IMG/VR virus record: IMGVR_UViG_2579778660_000005
DNA length: 16,519 nt
Reading direction: 5' to 3' (one strand)
DNA from: a virus
Lineage: Duplodnaviria > Heunggongvirae > Uroviricota > Caudoviricetes
A program made the translations under genes and the position numbers. The stretch's first letter is position 1; every line of letters begins with the position of its first letter. Under the pieces are notes generated by a model. It was not told the origin of the DNA. It did no database searches and worked only from the letters and a program-made list of their open reading frames with translations. Below, one piece after another: positions 11,817 through 16,519 of this stretch.

Positions 11817-12638
11817 TTACCTAGTTACCTTTTTTAACTGCCGCTCAGCCCATGCTTCTTCAATATCAAACCGGGTCACCAGCGCATCATAGAATTTCTT
11901 AACTGTTTTTTCCCATGACGCGCGTGTTATCTGGTTTGTCACCTCGCATATAGCATTAAATGCCTCCGTTGATGGTAGTCTTTCATAGCCCCGACCACCA
12001 CAACGCTGGCAGTCTCTGATAACAGGCATACCACGTTTTACCGACTCTTCACGGTGAATGGCGACACCACGCCCACGGCAATCCTTACAGGCGGTGGAAA
12101 CCTCACCCTTTCCGCCACACTCCGGACAGGCAACTTTTACCACCTCCCTGACTTTTTTCCATTCTTCCCAGTAAGACGGATACACACCTTTCGTACACTT
12201 TGCCCATACCGGCGGCTTACCATCCGGATACTGGACCTTGTTTGTAAAAACTACGCTTTCAATAAATTTTTCCCCATAGCAACAAGGGCACTGCTTTTTA
12301 CTCGCTGCGCTGCGGGCATAATCCTCAAAAGCGTACGAAGCCATAATGCGCATCACTAACGGTTTTATTTCTGCCGGAAGTTTTCTCAACGCCGCCACAC
12401 GATCGCACCGACTGAGTGCATAATCTGCCAGTAATTCTGTTGCCCGCGCCCTGTCATTCATACTGATGCCCATTTTCCCCAGGAACGCAGAAAATCCCAT
12501 CTCAGCCCGATTCTGTGTCATGCCCTGCGCGGCCATCACATCAGTGATACTCAGCGCATCTTTTGACGTTGAGGCCGATGCATCGGTCAGGCCAGGGGAT
12601 TTTGGGGAGTAGTATTTCGGTAAATCTTCCAGTTTCAT
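11817..12638 (-). CDS. quuQ: Late-gene antitermination protein Q (lambda Q family)
   Basis: 273 aa; shares with remembered lambda Q the blocks SPKSP...TDVMAA.GM, CxxC-GxG zinc motifs (CKDCRGRG, CQRCGGRGY) and TVK..YDALV. Confidence 0.9.
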   Translation of the reverse strand: MKLEDLPKYYSPKSPGLTDASASTSKDALSITDVMAAQGMTQNRAEMGFSAFLGKMGISMNDRARATELLADYALSRCDRVAALRKLPAEIKPLVMRIMASYAFEDYARSAASKKQCPCCYGEKFIESVVFTNKVQYPDGKPPVWAKCTKGVYPSYWEEWKKVREVVKVACPECGGKGEVSTACKDCRGRGVAIHREESVKRGMPVIRDCQRCGGRGYERLPSTEAFNAICEVTNQITRASWEKTVKKFYDALVTRFDIEEAWAERQLKKVTR

Positions 12639-13021: not shown

Positions 13022-14026
13022 TTACCCAAGCACGCCAGTTGCAAAGGCGTGATCAAGAAAACGAAAAATTAAATCAACCTGAGAACCATGCTTTTCTTCG
13101 AACGCCAGAGGATCCGCATGAAACTCGTTGTGATGCTCCCGACACAGCGGTAGCGTGAAAATATCGTGAGATTTTGTCCCCATTCCGCCCTGACCATGAC
13201 CAATCAGGTGATGGGGATCGTCGGCTGGCTTACCACAACACGCACACGGCTGTGTCTTCACCCAGCGTGTGTATTTCTCGTTAACCCAGCGGCGACGTTT
13301 AGGTCGTTTCATGAAAGATTCCGGAGACTCAGGATCAACGGCAATGCTGACCACCGTCTTTTCCTGTGGTGGGTTCTGTTGCTGGTGGGCGTGAGGCAGC
13401 GGCGCAAGATTTTTTGTGCGCTGTTTCAGTATGCTGGTGGCGGTCTGCTCTCCCGGTACGATGTCGCTTTCACGGTACATTGAGCGGATTTTTTCCGCAC
13501 GCAACCCCAGCGAACCACGTAATACCGCTTCCGGTAGCGCGTCCGCCACCTGATTGCGGACCGCCCACCAGGATAATTCAGCCAAAGATAATTCACGCTC
13601 CTGCGTACCGCTTATTGCGTGACCGATGACGTCAATCATCCATGCTGACAGGTTTTGATGAGCAAGTTGCTCGAGTGATTCGGATGTCTGGTCACGCAGC
13701 TGGTTGTCGCAGTGCCAGCACAACACCATTGCGCCGGTACCATAACGGTGAATGACGGTTTCGCTGTGATGATAATCGCCGTGTGGCCACTGGCAGGATT
13801 TAATATGGCGCAACAGCCAGTCAGACAATGCACCAGCACCACCAGCAGCACGAATTACCCGTGCGTTACTGAAAAACGGCAGCAATGTTTTGTCTTCCAC
13901 CAGCGGCTGGCGAACGGCAGGAACGACCCCGGACGGCAGATTACGCATGCTTTTCGGTTCCGGCTCCACCAGTACCCGGGTATTGTGGAATACCGGCATG
14001 GATTCACGGCCCGGCTTAACGACCAC
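13022..14026 (-). CDS. ydfU: DUF968 protein with C-terminal HNH-like Cys/His motif (YdfU-like); start uncertain
   Basis: 334 aa; C-terminal CACCGKPADDPHHLIGHGQGGMGTKSHD...CREHHNEFH; track start is GTG, an ATG lies at 13999. Confidence 0.7.
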   Translation of the reverse strand: MVVKPGRESMPVFHNTRVLVEPEPKSMRNLPSGVVPAVRQPLVEDKTLLPFFSNARVIRAAGGAGALSDWLLRHIKSCQWPHGDYHHSETVIHRYGTGAMVLCWHCDNQLRDQTSESLEQLAHQNLSAWMIDVIGHAISGTQERELSLAELSWWAVRNQVADALPEAVLRGSLGLRAEKIRSMYRESDIVPGEQTATSILKQRTKNLAPLPHAHQQQNPPQEKTVVSIAVDPESPESFMKRPKRRRWVNEKYTRWVKTQPCACCGKPADDPHHLIGHGQGGMGTKSHDIFTLPLCREHHNEFHADPLAFEEKHGSQVDLIFRFLDHAFATGVLG

Positions 14027-14321
14027 CAGCCCGAGTTCCGGTAGCCTCCATAATTGCAGGCACTAGCGCCGTGAACTTTTCACGCTTATCCCTGGTGTCG
14101 ATAGCCTTCCAGCGTTCGAATATCTTCACTCGATTAACGCCAAGCGCTCGCTGATCAACCGCGCCACCTTCATCTGTGACACGCTGAACATCGATGTTCG
14201 GGCGCTCTTTCAAAGCCCAGAATGCTTCAGTGATTAATATCGTCGCCTGCTCCTGTGTCATTCCTGGTCGACATATCCAGGCATCCAGAGCCTCACGAGC
14301 CTGTTCAGGAGTGATTTTCAT
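14016..14321 (-). CDS. Hypothetical phage protein (101 aa; possibly YdfX-like)
   Basis: ORF overlapping both neighbours in a compact operon downstream of the Cro-like gene; no recognised motif. Confidence 0.45.
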   Translation of the reverse strand: MKITPEQAREALDAWICRPGMTQEQATILITEAFWALKERPNIDVQRVTDEGGAVDQRALGVNRVKIFERWKAIDTRDKREKFTALVPAIMEATGTRAGGR

Positions 14322-14532
14322 TGTTCAACCGCCCCGCCCGCTTCGTCTTACGATATTCGTCATAAACCTTGGGATCATACAGAAGCTCGCCGCCAGATGC
14401 CTCCTGTAGACGCATCGCGCGACCTTCAGGAACCAGCTCTTGCCATTGAGAAACAGCAGATGGGTCAACGCCAGCAGCTTTCGCTACTTTGGCTTTCGTA
14501 CCGTAAAAATTAATTACGTCTGATTTAAACAT
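14305..14532 (-). CDS. dicC: Cro-like HTH regulator (DicC-like), 75 aa
   Basis: HTH-like segment GTKAKVAKAAGVDPSAVSQW; start taken at the internal ATG 14532 preceded by GGAGG; divergent from the repressor gene. Confidence 0.75.
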   Translation of the reverse strand: MFKSDVINFYGTKAKVAKAAGVDPSAVSQWQELVPEGRAMRLQEASGGELLYDPKVYDEYRKTKRAGRLNNENHS

Positions 14533-14545
14533 CGCACCTCCAGTA

Positions 14546-14559
14546 TTGAGTTTTCTCAA
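14546..14559. promoter_or_regulatory. Candidate DicA operator (TTGAGTTTTCTCAA) in the dicC-dicA divergent region
   Basis: Imperfect inverted repeat whose 10-mer AGTTTTCTCA recurs twice downstream of dicA. Confidence 0.45.
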
Positions 14560-14609
14560 TGCTAATCACTCAAGGAATCTCAAGTCAAGGGTTATTAAGA
14601 TATCTAAAT

Positions 14610-15017
14610 ATGAACGAGAAAACTTTAGGTCAACGCATTAGAGAAAGACGTAAGCAGGTAGGTTTAAGTCAAAACGGTTTAAGCAAAGCTGCTGGCGTAT
14701 CTGGCTCATCAATTTCATTATGGGAAAGTGACCATACAGCCCCGCGCGGGCAAAATTTGCATCGCCTCGCCGAGGTATTGCAATGTTCACCAACCTGGAT
14801 ACTGTTTGGCGACGAGGACAAAACACCAGCTCCCCCTGTTTCACTCGATAGTGCCTTAGACTTATCGGAAGATGAGTTAGAGATGCTGCGTTTGTATCGC
14901 GCACTTCCTAAATCAGAGCAACAAGCACAACTCAGCGAACTCCGCGCCCGCGTTGAGAATTTTAATCGCCTGTTCACCGAGCTATTAGAGGCTCGCAAAC
15001 GCAACAAGCATCAATAA
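14610..15017 (+). CDS. dicA: XRE-family HTH repressor (DicA-like), 135 aa
   Basis: Contains LQCSPTWILFGDEDK and a C-terminal region matching remembered DicA; start at ATG 14610, the 152-aa track ORF is an upstream extension. Confidence 0.88.
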   Translation: MNEKTLGQRIRERRKQVGLSQNGLSKAAGVSGSSISLWESDHTAPRGQNLHRLAEVLQCSPTWILFGDEDKTPAPPVSLDSALDLSEDELEMLRLYRALPKSEQQAQLSELRARVENFNRLFTELLEARKRNKHQ

Positions 15018-15081
15018 TCATCCCTTCACAAAATTTTAAAGCCTTACATTTCAATGTATTGGCTTTATCTTGCGTCAATAC

Positions 15082-15133
15082 TTGAGTTTTCTCATCAAAA
15101 AGCCTTGACGAAAAATAATGAGAAAACTAAATT
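15082..15133 (+). promoter_or_regulatory. Candidate operator-promoter for the ydfA operon
   Basis: -35 TTGACG (15105..15110), 17-nt spacer, -10 TAAATT (15128..15133); 10-mer AGTTTTCTCA at 15084..15093 and its reverse complement TGAGAAAACT at 15119..15128 inside the spacer. Confidence 0.45.
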
Positions 15134-15209
15134 ACCTCCATCAACACACCGCACGGTGTTCTCAGCAAACAGTTCCGCTACCCCGGCGTTAAGGGGAAAT
15201 GAGGTCAGC

Positions 15210-15365
15210 ATGGATACTATCGATCTTGGCAACAACGAATCTCTGGTGTACGGCGTGTTTCCAAACCAGGACGGCACGTTCACCGCAATGACGTATACCA
15301 AAAGCAAAACGTTTAAAACCGAAAATGGTGCCCGTCGCTGGCTGGAAAGAAACTCAGGTGAGTGA
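15210..15365 (+). CDS. ydfA: YdfA-like small protein (51 aa)
   Basis: ATG at 15210 preceded by AAGGGGAAATGAGG; protein MDTIDLGNNESLVYGVFPNQDG...; stop overlaps the next start. Confidence 0.7.
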   Translation: MDTIDLGNNESLVYGVFPNQDGTFTAMTYTKSKTFKTENGARRWLERNSGE

Positions 15366-15366
15366 T

Positions 15367-15798
15367 ATGGATTTCGACACAATCATGGAAAAGGCTTACG
15401 AAGAATACTTCGAAGGCCTTGCCGAAGGCGAAGAAGCTCTCAGCTTCAGTGAGTTTAAACAGGCACTCAGAATAAGAATGTGCTCTCACAATGACGCGGA
15501 GCACAAATATGAGAAGCAAAATCAGACCGCAGAAAATTTTGTTCTGGAACCCGGAGAAACGCTTTTCAAAATTCCCGTTACGTGCCCCATTTGCGGTTTT
15601 ACATCAGAAGAACTTGACGACTCCTGTAACAATCAGGAAACAACCAAGTATGTCGAAGATGATACCGAGTGCGCACGAAGAACGATTATATCCACGAGTC
15701 CAAACTCCAGAACCAATAAATCTCACTTTGAGAGGGTGATTAACCCACTAGACTGGCCCCCTGAATCTCCAGACAACCAGTATCACTTAAATAAGTGA
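15367..15798 (+). CDS. YdfB/YdfC-like protein with CPICGF motif; 3' end replaced by IS2 sequence
   Basis: 143-aa ORF starting [17 protein letters not shown]; its last about 16 codons and stop lie inside the IS2 left end that begins at 15749. Confidence 0.55.
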
Positions 15799-15839
15799 TA
15801 GTCTTAATACTAGTTTTTAGACTAGTCATTGGAGAACAG

Positions 15840-16205
15840 ATGATTGATGTCTTAGGGCCGGAGAAACGCAGACGGCGTACCACACAGGAAAAGATCGCAA
15901 TTGTTCAGCAGAGCTTTGAACCGGGGATGACGGTCTCCCTCGTTGCCCGGCAACATGGTGTAGCAGCCAGCCAGTTATTTCTCTGGCGTAAGCAATACCA
16001 GGAAGGAAGTCTTACTGCTGTCGCCGCCGGAGAACAGGTTGTTCCTGCCTCTGAACTTGCTGCCGCCATGAAGCAGATTAAAGAACTCCAGCGCCTGCTC
16101 GGCAAGAAAACGATGGAAAATGAACTCCTCAAAGAAGCCGTTGAATATGGACGGGCAAAAAAGTGGATAGCGCACGCGCCCTTATTGCCCGGGGATGGGG
16201 AGTAA
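15840..16205 (+). CDS. insC: IS2 transposase OrfA (InsC)
   Basis: 121 aa [56 protein letters not shown]... matches remembered InsC. Confidence 0.92.
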
Positions 16206-16519
16206 GCTTAGTCAGCCGTTGTCTCCGGGTGTCGCGTGCGCAGTTGCACGTCATTCTCAGACGAACCGATGACTGGATGGATGGCCGCCGCAGTCGTCAC
16301 ACTGATGATACGGATGTGCTTCTCCGTATACACCATGTTATCGGAGAGCTGCCCACGTATGGTTATCGTCGGGTATGGGCGCTGCTTCGCAGACAGGCAG
16401 AACTTGATGGTATGCCTGCGATCAATGCCAAACGTGTTTACCGGATCATGCGCCAGAATGCGCTGTTGCTTGAGCGAAAACCTGCTGTACCGCCATCGAA
16501 ACGGGCACATACAGGCAGA
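16163..16519 (+). CDS. insD: IS2 transposase OrfB (InsD), 5' part only, in the -1 frame relative to insC
   Basis: Translation (V/M)[45 protein letters not shown]... matches remembered InsD; slippery heptamer A-AAA-AAG at 16157..16163. Confidence 0.85.

Follow-up and report, generated by a model that had tools for sequence, protein, structure and literature searches.

Organization of the immunity region

The window (the whole 16,519-nt stretch of DNA that was analysed) represents a Qin/mEp460-like lambdoid prophage of E. coli, which adjoins rspB in strain 118UI; the close relative L001 lies beside rspB. Its immunity region contains a divergent pair of regulatory genes. The cro/dicC-like gene (14305..14532, minus strand) encodes a 75-aa protein of the Pfam family P22_Cro (E 3e-16), which is labelled a Cro/CI family regulator in the annotation of L001 and is 70% identical to K-12 DicC, with all of the differences in residues 1-32 and identity from residue 33 onward. 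The dicA-like gene (14610..15017, plus strand) encodes a 135-aa repressor with a Pfam HTH_3 domain at residues 10-64, and this protein is 57% identical to K-12 DicA over residues 5-131. The Pfam search of the repressor returned HTH families only, and Peptidase_S24 was not found. Beyond the repressor gene lies ydfA (15210..15365, plus strand; Pfam DUF1391, E 2e-28), the first gene of the repressed leftward operon. These similarities justify the names dicA, dicC and ydfA that an earlier reading of the letters (the sequence-only reading) had given to the three genes.

In L001, the same gene is annotated as ydfA and is followed by dicB and ydfD. In the window, the operon downstream of ydfA is cut by IS2 at ~15750, and dicB and dicF are absent; dicB follows in L001 and in mEp460, both of which carry the immunity cassette described below at 98-99.7% identity.

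A consensus scan of positions 14200-15400 finds two promoter-like sites. The dicC-like promoter (14559..14588, minus strand) consists of the -35 element TTGACT (14588-14583), an 18-bp spacer and the -10 element TAGCAT (14564-14559), with a predicted start at ~14552(-). This -10 element reads TACTAT, TAGTAT or TATCAT in relatives, with positions 1, 2, 5 and 6 kept and positions 3 and 4 free, which is the pattern expected of a real -10 element. The ydfA promoter (15105..15133, plus strand), with a predicted +1 near A15140, consists of TTGACG (15105-10), a 17-bp spacer and TAAATT (15128-33); the TTGAC and TAAnnT boxes are kept in most relatives, and L006 has TGGAC. It is the counterpart of K-12 dicBp (PMC10448788). 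Additionally, a hairpin follows the dicA stop codon (15037..15067, plus strand), with a folding energy of -11.3 kcal/mol (z = -3.9; 0/200 shuffles as stable), a loop, TTTCAATGT, that is conserved in relatives, and a T-rich tail behind it. The hairpin was seen by direct folding, a consensus terminator scan after dicA having given no match, and it is probably the dicA terminator.

Three dyads flank the repressor gene

The exact 10-mer AGTTTTCTCA occurs four times in the 16.5-kb window, at 12379-12388(+), 14549-14558(+), 15085-15094(+) and 15119-15128(-), against an expectation of 0.03, and a count of 4 is reached in 0/200 shuffles. Direct reading reveals that the 10-mer is embedded in a larger 14-bp near-palindrome, TTGAG-TTTT-CTCAA. 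A search of the window for the 14-mer TTGAGTTTTCTCAA, allowing up to 2 mismatches, gives exactly three sites, which differ from the consensus TTGAG-T4-CTCAA by 0, 1 and 2 mismatches and all flank the repressor gene (3 versus 0.19 expected; 3 reached in 0/200 shuffles). Judged from the sequence, the functional unit appears to be the 14-16 bp dyad rather than the 10-mer. The sequence-only reading had listed three copies of the 10-mer; the position given for 15119-15128 is exact, those given as 14548-14557 and 15084-15093 are each one base too low, and the list is incomplete, the copy at 12379-12388 having been missed.

This fourth copy was considered as an additional operator and rejected. It sits within the coding sequence of the Q antiterminator, its left half-site is absent (GGAAG is found instead), it is also present in phage vB_EcoS-640R1, which is without this immunity cassette, and phages Evi and Stx2_EH1910 carry altered versions of it in their Q genes. 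The comparison of the Q segment was made in a phage collection, and K-12, L001 and L096 had no homologue of the segment. In the complete phage mEp460_ev081, the 10-mer is restricted to the three immunity sites and the same copy in Q. The copy at 12379 is therefore the one of the four that is best treated as a chance match. The chance of all of the repeats being such matches in A/T-rich intergenic DNA is practically negligible, given the shuffling results above and the fact that the other sites are kept in different genera and vary in step with the repressor allele.

The three remaining sites are termed S1, S2 and S3. S1 (14545..14560), the putative strong operator and analogue of K-12 Oc, is a perfect 16-bp palindrome, ATTGAGTTTTCTCAAT, whose 14-bp core, TTGAGTTTTCTCAA (14546-14559), has the form TTGAG-N4-CTCAA, as the sequence-only reading had recognized. 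S1 overlaps the final bases of the -10 element and the predicted start of the cro/dicC-like promoter. S2 (15082..15095; TTGAGTTTTCTCAT), the putative promoter-distal operator of the ydfA promoter, is centred at approximately -51.5, just upstream of the -35 element and outside the core hexamers. S3 (15118..15131; ATGAGAAAACTAAA, reverse complement TTTAGTTTTCTCAT), the putative promoter-proximal operator, is centred at approximately -15.5 and occupies the spacer and the leading bases of the -10 element of the same promoter, with its CTAAA half also supplying the beginning of the -10 hexamer; the third 10-mer copy does lie, as had been proposed, in the promoter spacer. The centres of S2 and S3 are 36 bp apart (35 bp in K-12 and L005), or ~3.4 helical turns, and simple side-by-side cooperativity is thus not evident. 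No middle operator is found between them at up to 2 mismatches in a scan of the leftward-promoter region.

S1 forms a perfect palindrome of 6 bp with a 4-nt loop that begins at approximately +1 of the dicC-like transcript, and the dyads could in principle act as RNA, e.g., as a 5' stem-loop of the dicC-like mRNA. S2 and S3, however, are imperfect and lie upstream of the predicted start, so that they are untranscribed from the ydfA promoter; moreover, the sequence of the half-sites is conserved, not merely their pairing, and no compensatory changes are seen in relatives. An RNA-hairpin role of the dyads was rejected on these grounds and is considered highly improbable.

Conservation of the dyads in diverged relatives

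The sites were compared at 13 loci from a genome collection, with repressor relatives of 44-100% identity. Most of the E. coli copies are too closely related to inform, and the footprint rests on approximately six diverged lineages. The repressors of Buttiauxella ferragutiae and B. gaviniae are 76% and 74% identical to that of the window and have the recognition helix VSDSSISLWES; in both species TGAGTTTTCTCAA is kept at S1 and S2 and TTGAGAAAACTAA at S3, and the surrounding DNA has diverged. Across Buttiauxella and the viral and metagenomic relatives (74-96% protein identity), TGAG-W4-CTMA is present at all three positions, and the flanks diverge. At S1, TGAGTTTTCTCAA(T/G) is kept in L005, L006, L103 and L104; at S2, TGAGTTTTCTCA is invariant in the window, L089, L005 and L006 amid diverged flanks; and at S3, TGAGAAAACTAA is invariant in four lineages. 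L103, L104 and L184 carry [CT]TGAG-W4-CT[CA]A at each position, with centres that are always A/T (TTTT, ATAT, AAAT).

In the four-lineage alignments, 24/28 columns are invariant in the S2 and S3 cores versus 40/122 elsewhere (Fisher p=3e-7), and 13/14 columns are invariant in the S1 core versus 42/64 elsewhere (p=0.04). The S1 core is unvaried in 79/79 viral contigs, in which the neighbouring bases on each side vary, and S2 and S3 show only rare singleton changes in such contigs, with polymorphic DNA between them. A blind metagenome scan for the S2-S3 pair returned 42 stretches, in 38 of which the neighbouring gene was readable; the pair lies beside this HTH class (SQN[GD]/SQSG LSKAAGVSGSSISLWES) in all 38 readable contigs, and S1 lies 63 nt before the ATG in 37 of them. 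A lack of conservation in related immunity regions had been named in advance as a result that would refute the operators; in the comparison that was run, all three positions keep their dyads in diverged relatives, amid drifting flanks.

For S1 and S3, part of this conservation could stem from the -10 and start elements that they overlap. The caveat does not extend to S2, whose position outside the core hexamers indicates that the promoter does not explain its conservation. This distinction bears on the possibility that the conserved blocks are elements of promoter architecture or sites for host factors, such as A-tract bends, UP-like elements or IHF, Fis or H-NS sites. Such an explanation would suit the A/T-rich character of the sites with their A4 tract, the overlap of S1 and S3 with core promoter elements, and the effect of H-NS/Cnu on the K-12 locus (PMC3441716). 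It is nevertheless very improbable: the same dyad is found at each of the two promoters and, at S2, away from the hexamers; not just the A/T content but the particular bases TGAG/CTCA are kept without change; and the sites are replaced wholesale with the repressor allele, which is unexpected of host-factor sites.

Weak candidate sites in the divergent region

The divergent region was scanned for extra sites, with 2 mismatches allowed in ten specified positions. Two weak candidates are found, namely S1b (14570..14583; TCAAGGAATCTCAA), a candidate Om analogue with 2 mismatches that lies 24 bp from S1, and S1c (14595..14608; TTAAGATATCTAAA), a candidate Oa analogue that lies 25 bp from S1b. At least two such weak matches in the 50-bp divergent stretch have a probability of P=1.25e-4 in composition-matched shuffles. 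S1 and the two weak matches, 24 and 25 bp apart, give the divergent region a spacing that resembles that of lambda OR1-OR2-OR3; S1b is not conserved, falling to 4 mismatches in Buttiauxella, and the leftward promoter has two sites.

S1c directly abuts the dicA ATG, which has no Shine-Dalgarno sequence, and overlaps the likely dicA -10 element (TAAGAT, 14596-14601). The S1c block is invariant not only in the window, L089, L005, L006 and L103 but even in L007, a different allele, which suggests that its invariance may reflect a promoter or leaderless start and not an operator; S1c may instead be the dicA -10 element with a leaderless start. S1b and S1c match K-12 Om and Oa in position, neither of which was bound by DicA in vivo (PMC3441716). 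Confidence in S1b and S1c as operators is low.

Exchange of the dyads with the repressor allele

An alignment with K-12 Qin reveals a block of 704 bp (14435..15138) that is diverged from K-12, with near-identical DNA to the left of ~14434 (in dicC, past the DNA-binding part) and from 15139 onward; the flanking DNA is 98-100% identical. The right boundary coincides with the predicted +1 of the ydfA promoter, 15139 being the base before +1. This allele-specific immunity cassette contains the first ~32 codons of dicC (the N-terminal, DNA-binding part), the divergent promoter/operator region with S1, dicA, and the dicBp-like promoter with S2 and S3, which indicates that the putative operators and the DNA-binding portions of the two regulators are exchanged together. 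In this respect, the cassette resembles those of the lambda/434 type, in which the repressor, the DNA-binding part of cro and both operator clusters move as a block with recombination boundaries just outside the operators.

At the homologous positions, K-12 carries the dyads TTGTTAGTCATAACTAACAA (Oc), ATGTTAGCTATAGCATACAA and ATGTTAGTCATGGCTAATCT, which are of the TGTTAG-N6-CTAACA type; ATGTTAGCTATAGCATACAA and ATGTTAGTCATGGCTAATCT bracket a TTGACC -35 element with centres 35 bp apart. No site of the TGTTAG-N6-CTAACA type is found in the cassette, in which a different dyad occupies these positions. The replacement of the K-12 operator by a different dyad argues for a heteroimmune allele of the same system rather than for K-12 specificity.

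Other DicA alleles, read manually, have different dyads again at the same three positions. These dyads are of the GTTGAG-N4-yTTAAC type in Citrobacter L007, have TGTTAG-type half-sites with other centres in L011-L013, and read TAACTTTTGTTA in L014 and L015; the K-12 class, L009 and L010 are also among these alleles. A cross-allele matrix, in which the S1 region of each locus was matched to the downstream region of every locus by anchored comparison, gives 13-14 of 14 matches within the class of the window versus 9-12 for other classes. L007 and the K-12 class also match best within their own class, with L007 tying with L012, and the remaining classes are near background.

Probable mode of DNA recognition by the DicA-like repressor

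Residues 1-72 of the repressor align without gaps to the N-terminal domain of P22 C2 (1adr, 2r1j and 3jxb; E ~1e-15), and the similarity to PDB entries ends at residue 72. The P22 consensus half-site, TTAAG, is one base from the TTGAG found here. At the start of the recognition helix, the repressor differs from P22 by N32G, V33S, A34S and Q37L, which fits a changed specificity. A dimer of the P22 C2 domain occupies an 18-bp dyad, contacting positions 2-7 and 12-17 but not the central 4 bp, and has its highest affinity for A-tract centres, in which a narrow minor groove is already formed (PMC4267663). By likeness to this complex, a dimer of the DicA-like protein would read each 14-bp dyad through a P22-C2-type helix-turn-helix, with the two TGAG/CTCA half-sites in successive major grooves and four uncontacted A/T base pairs between them.

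The centre of all three sites is composed of A/T only in several genera and is almost always a pure A4/T4 tract. The residues corresponding to those at the central minor groove in P22 C2 are changed here (E44A and N46R), and the P22 variant N46A binds only an operator with an A-tract centre (PMC4267663). The Ala and Arg at positions 44 and 46 may, by analogy, offer a reason for the near-invariant T4/A4 centre. The A/T centre and Ala44/Arg46, together with just two putative dimer sites at the leftward promoter that lie 36 bp apart and straddle the -35 element, could mean a different repression geometry. That the allele is a natural P22-type repressor variant dependent on shape readout, with a repression geometry unlike the adjacent-dimer model of lambda and P22, is a speculative and rather doubtful proposal; such a geometry could be, e.g., a tetramer clamp or wrapping of the DNA via the non-S24 C-terminal domain.

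The P22 immC region (C2/Cro, OR/OL) shares with the locus a C2-type N-terminal domain, a P22_Cro partner, operators of 5+4+5 geometry and an A/T centre (PMC4267663). It differs in the arrangement of the sites, with three and three in P22 versus one strong and two weak sites rightward and two leftward here, and in the C-terminal domain, which is short here whereas P22 C2 has an S24 autocleavage domain. The repressor thus appears to work like C2 at the DNA without being a full-length member of the C2 family. It also differs from the repressors of lambda/434-type cassettes in that it would not be cleavable by RecA. In K-12 and the mEp460 relatives, control is thought to run via the antirepressor Rem (PMC10448788); rem is absent from the window.

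Proposed operation of the switch

S1, S2 and S3 are non-random and overlap promoter elements; they persist in diverged relatives and change with the repressor allele. On sequence evidence, they very probably serve as the operators in a heteroimmune version of the Qin/mEp460 immunity switch. The arrangement has the traits of lambdoid immunity operators: divergent repressor and cro genes (HTH_3 and P22_Cro) with S1 over the rightward promoter, a second cluster (S2 and S3) on the leftward promoter beyond the repressor gene, partial dyads of 14-20 bp that share a consensus, and co-variation of the operators with the DNA-binding domains of the repressor and Cro. The layout that the sequence-only reading had expected, in which DicA operators control the cro-like gene as well as the operon beyond the repressor gene, is supported by the conservation of the sites, the allele swap, the association in 38/38 contigs and the K-12-like positions.

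The locus shares with K-12 Qin DicA/DicC the type of prophage and the gene order, with dicC divergent from dicA and then ydfA and the dicB operon, which in the window is cut by IS2 (the K-12 promoters being dicCp, dicAp and dicBp). It also shares the Qin-type traits of a short DicA orthologue (~135 aa) with an N-terminal HTH and no S24 cleavage domain, a divergent DicC orthologue, a strong dyad over the dicC -10 element, and two dyads that bracket the -35 element of dicBp with 35-36 bp between centres. The two systems differ in the recognition helix (VSGSSISLWES here versus ISHVSVSQWER in K-12, in repressors that are 57% identical) and in the operator (TTGAG-N4-CTCAA with an A4 centre here versus TGTTAG-N6-CTAACA in K-12), and these differences predict heteroimmunity. 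The locus would therefore seem to be the known DicA/DicC (Qin) switch in a heteroimmune allele that recognizes DNA in the manner of P22, and not a new kind of mechanism. The general layout has already been described for K-12 (PMC10448788, PMC3441716), and the operator sequence of the allele was not found in the searchable literature, in which its motif string gives only unrelated primer matches.

The binding protein, the dimer geometry, repression or activation, autoactivation and cooperativity are what we infer in the following model. Repressor at S1, whose centre is at approximately +1 of the dicC-like promoter, would block transcription of the cro-like gene and, by analogy with K-12, may stimulate its own weak, probably leaderless promoter. 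In K-12, Oc overlaps the dicC -10 element, and changing one A of Oc to C is enough to abolish the binding of DicA in vivo (PMC3441716). Repressor at S3, in the spacer and -10 element, and at S2, upstream of the -35 element, would occlude the promoter of ydfA and the dicB operon. In K-12, Oc is the one site with demonstrated in vivo binding of DicA (PMC3441716), and binding at dicBp was inferred there too; dicBp, upstream of ydfA, is derepressed 22-fold by deletion of dicA (PMC10448788). The Cro-like DicC most likely uses the same sites and would thereby flip the switch, since the sites and the first 32 residues of the protein are exchanged as one. In lambdoid switches, the two proteins ordinarily share their operators.

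The swapping of the N-terminal region of DicC would also suit sites that are bound by the Cro-like DicC only, with the DicA-like protein acting elsewhere or indirectly. DicC ChIP-seq in K-12 points the same way, with one site on each side of dicA and a palindromic TT(A/C/T)G...C(G/A/T)AA motif (PMC11430063). However, K-12 DicA binds Oc sequence-specifically in vivo (PMC3441716), deletion of dicC has no effect on dicBp whereas deletion of dicA derepresses it (PMC10448788), and the N-terminal domain of DicA is of the P22 C2 type, the known operators of which share the 5+4+5 geometry (PMC4267663). Exclusive use of the sites by DicC is accordingly improbable, and operators recognized by the DicA-like repressor, most likely shared with DicC, are the preferred reading.

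Distribution of the allele

The 1.1-kb stretch around the sites is 99.9% identical to many E. coli chromosomes, and at least 80% of the queried stretch is carried by about 796/5426 complete E. coli genomes. The switch of this allele is common in E. coli prophages, and would there control an operon for a dicB/dicF-type inhibitor of cell division. The analysis provides a sequence-defined set of putative operators and a likely immunity specificity for this widespread prophage switch, as well as a rule by which the superinfection immunity groups of Qin/mEp460-like prophages may be predicted. Additionally, the natural swap of operator and repressor relative to K-12 may be useful for specificity studies of P22-type HTH domains. 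The switch is present in mEp460_ev081 too, and the cassette is 99% identical in this functional phage and in phage HannyBb. The searchable literature mentions mEp460_ev081 only for its dicA/dicC/rem-like genes.

Architecture of the immunity cassette

Alignment with K-12 Qin reveals sharp edges to the allele-specific immunity cassette, on the right at 15139-15140 and on the left at about 14434. The left edge lies inside dicC, directly past its DNA-binding part, and the right edge falls where transcription from the ydfA promoter is predicted to start (+1). The ydfA transcript would thus be common to the immunity types, with everything upstream of it differing.

At the ydfA promoter, the centres of the two putative repressor operators (window 15082-15131) read, on the plus strand, always TTTT in S2 and usually AAAA in S3 across the window, the two Buttiauxella loci (L005 and L006) and the additional lineage L184. 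The region therefore forms a larger dyad centred on the -35 box, in which the CTCAT halves point inwards, unlike the two corresponding sites of K-12, which are in direct orientation.

No Shine-Dalgarno sequence is present before the ATG of the dicA-like gene (window 14595-14612), and the preceding TTAAGATATCTAAAT is invariant across five lineages, including the Citrobacter locus with a different immunity allele (L007). Together, these features suggest that the repressor mRNA is leaderless, a likeness to the lambda cI mRNA made from PRM. The likely terminator of dicA is a hairpin at 15037-15067, past the stop codon, which folds at -11.3 kcal/mol (z -3.9) and has a T-rich tail; the consensus terminator scan makes no call for this hairpin. 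Its loop, TTTCAATGT, is kept in Buttiauxella, where the outer stem is different.

An exact fourth copy of the 10-mer, AGTTTTCTCA, is located at 12379-12388, within the Q antiterminator gene (11817-12638, minus strand, 273 aa). As this copy is without the left half-site, is also found in a phage that does not carry the allele-specific cassette and has changed by mutation where the Q gene has diverged, its occurrence there is probably due to chance.

Disrupted and missing genes around the switch

Downstream of ydfA, a copy of IS2 (about 15750-16519) is inserted after codon 128 of a 191-aa gene; the IS2 end TAGACTGGCCCCCTGAATC begins at about 15749, and IS2E of K-12 matches the final 146 bases of the window at 100% identity. 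Given this insertion and the absence of dicF and dicB from the window, the repressed operon is disrupted in this prophage copy. A YdaT-family gene is truncated after residue 93 of 173 and adjoins a DUF968 (ydfU-like) gene (window about 14016-14043). Relative to E. coli strain 118UI and phage mEp460, this prophage lacks the replication genes, hokD and rem, which encodes the antirepressor; the absence of rem leaves this copy of the switch with no local antirepressor.

In the genome collection, the contigs of loci L003, L004 and L008 match either this E. coli prophage region or the K-12 allele at 100% identity, yet belong to metagenome-assembled genomes (MAGs) labelled Bacillota bacterium, Veillonella parvula and Collinsella sp.; their placement in non-E. 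coli MAGs most likely reflects binning contamination.
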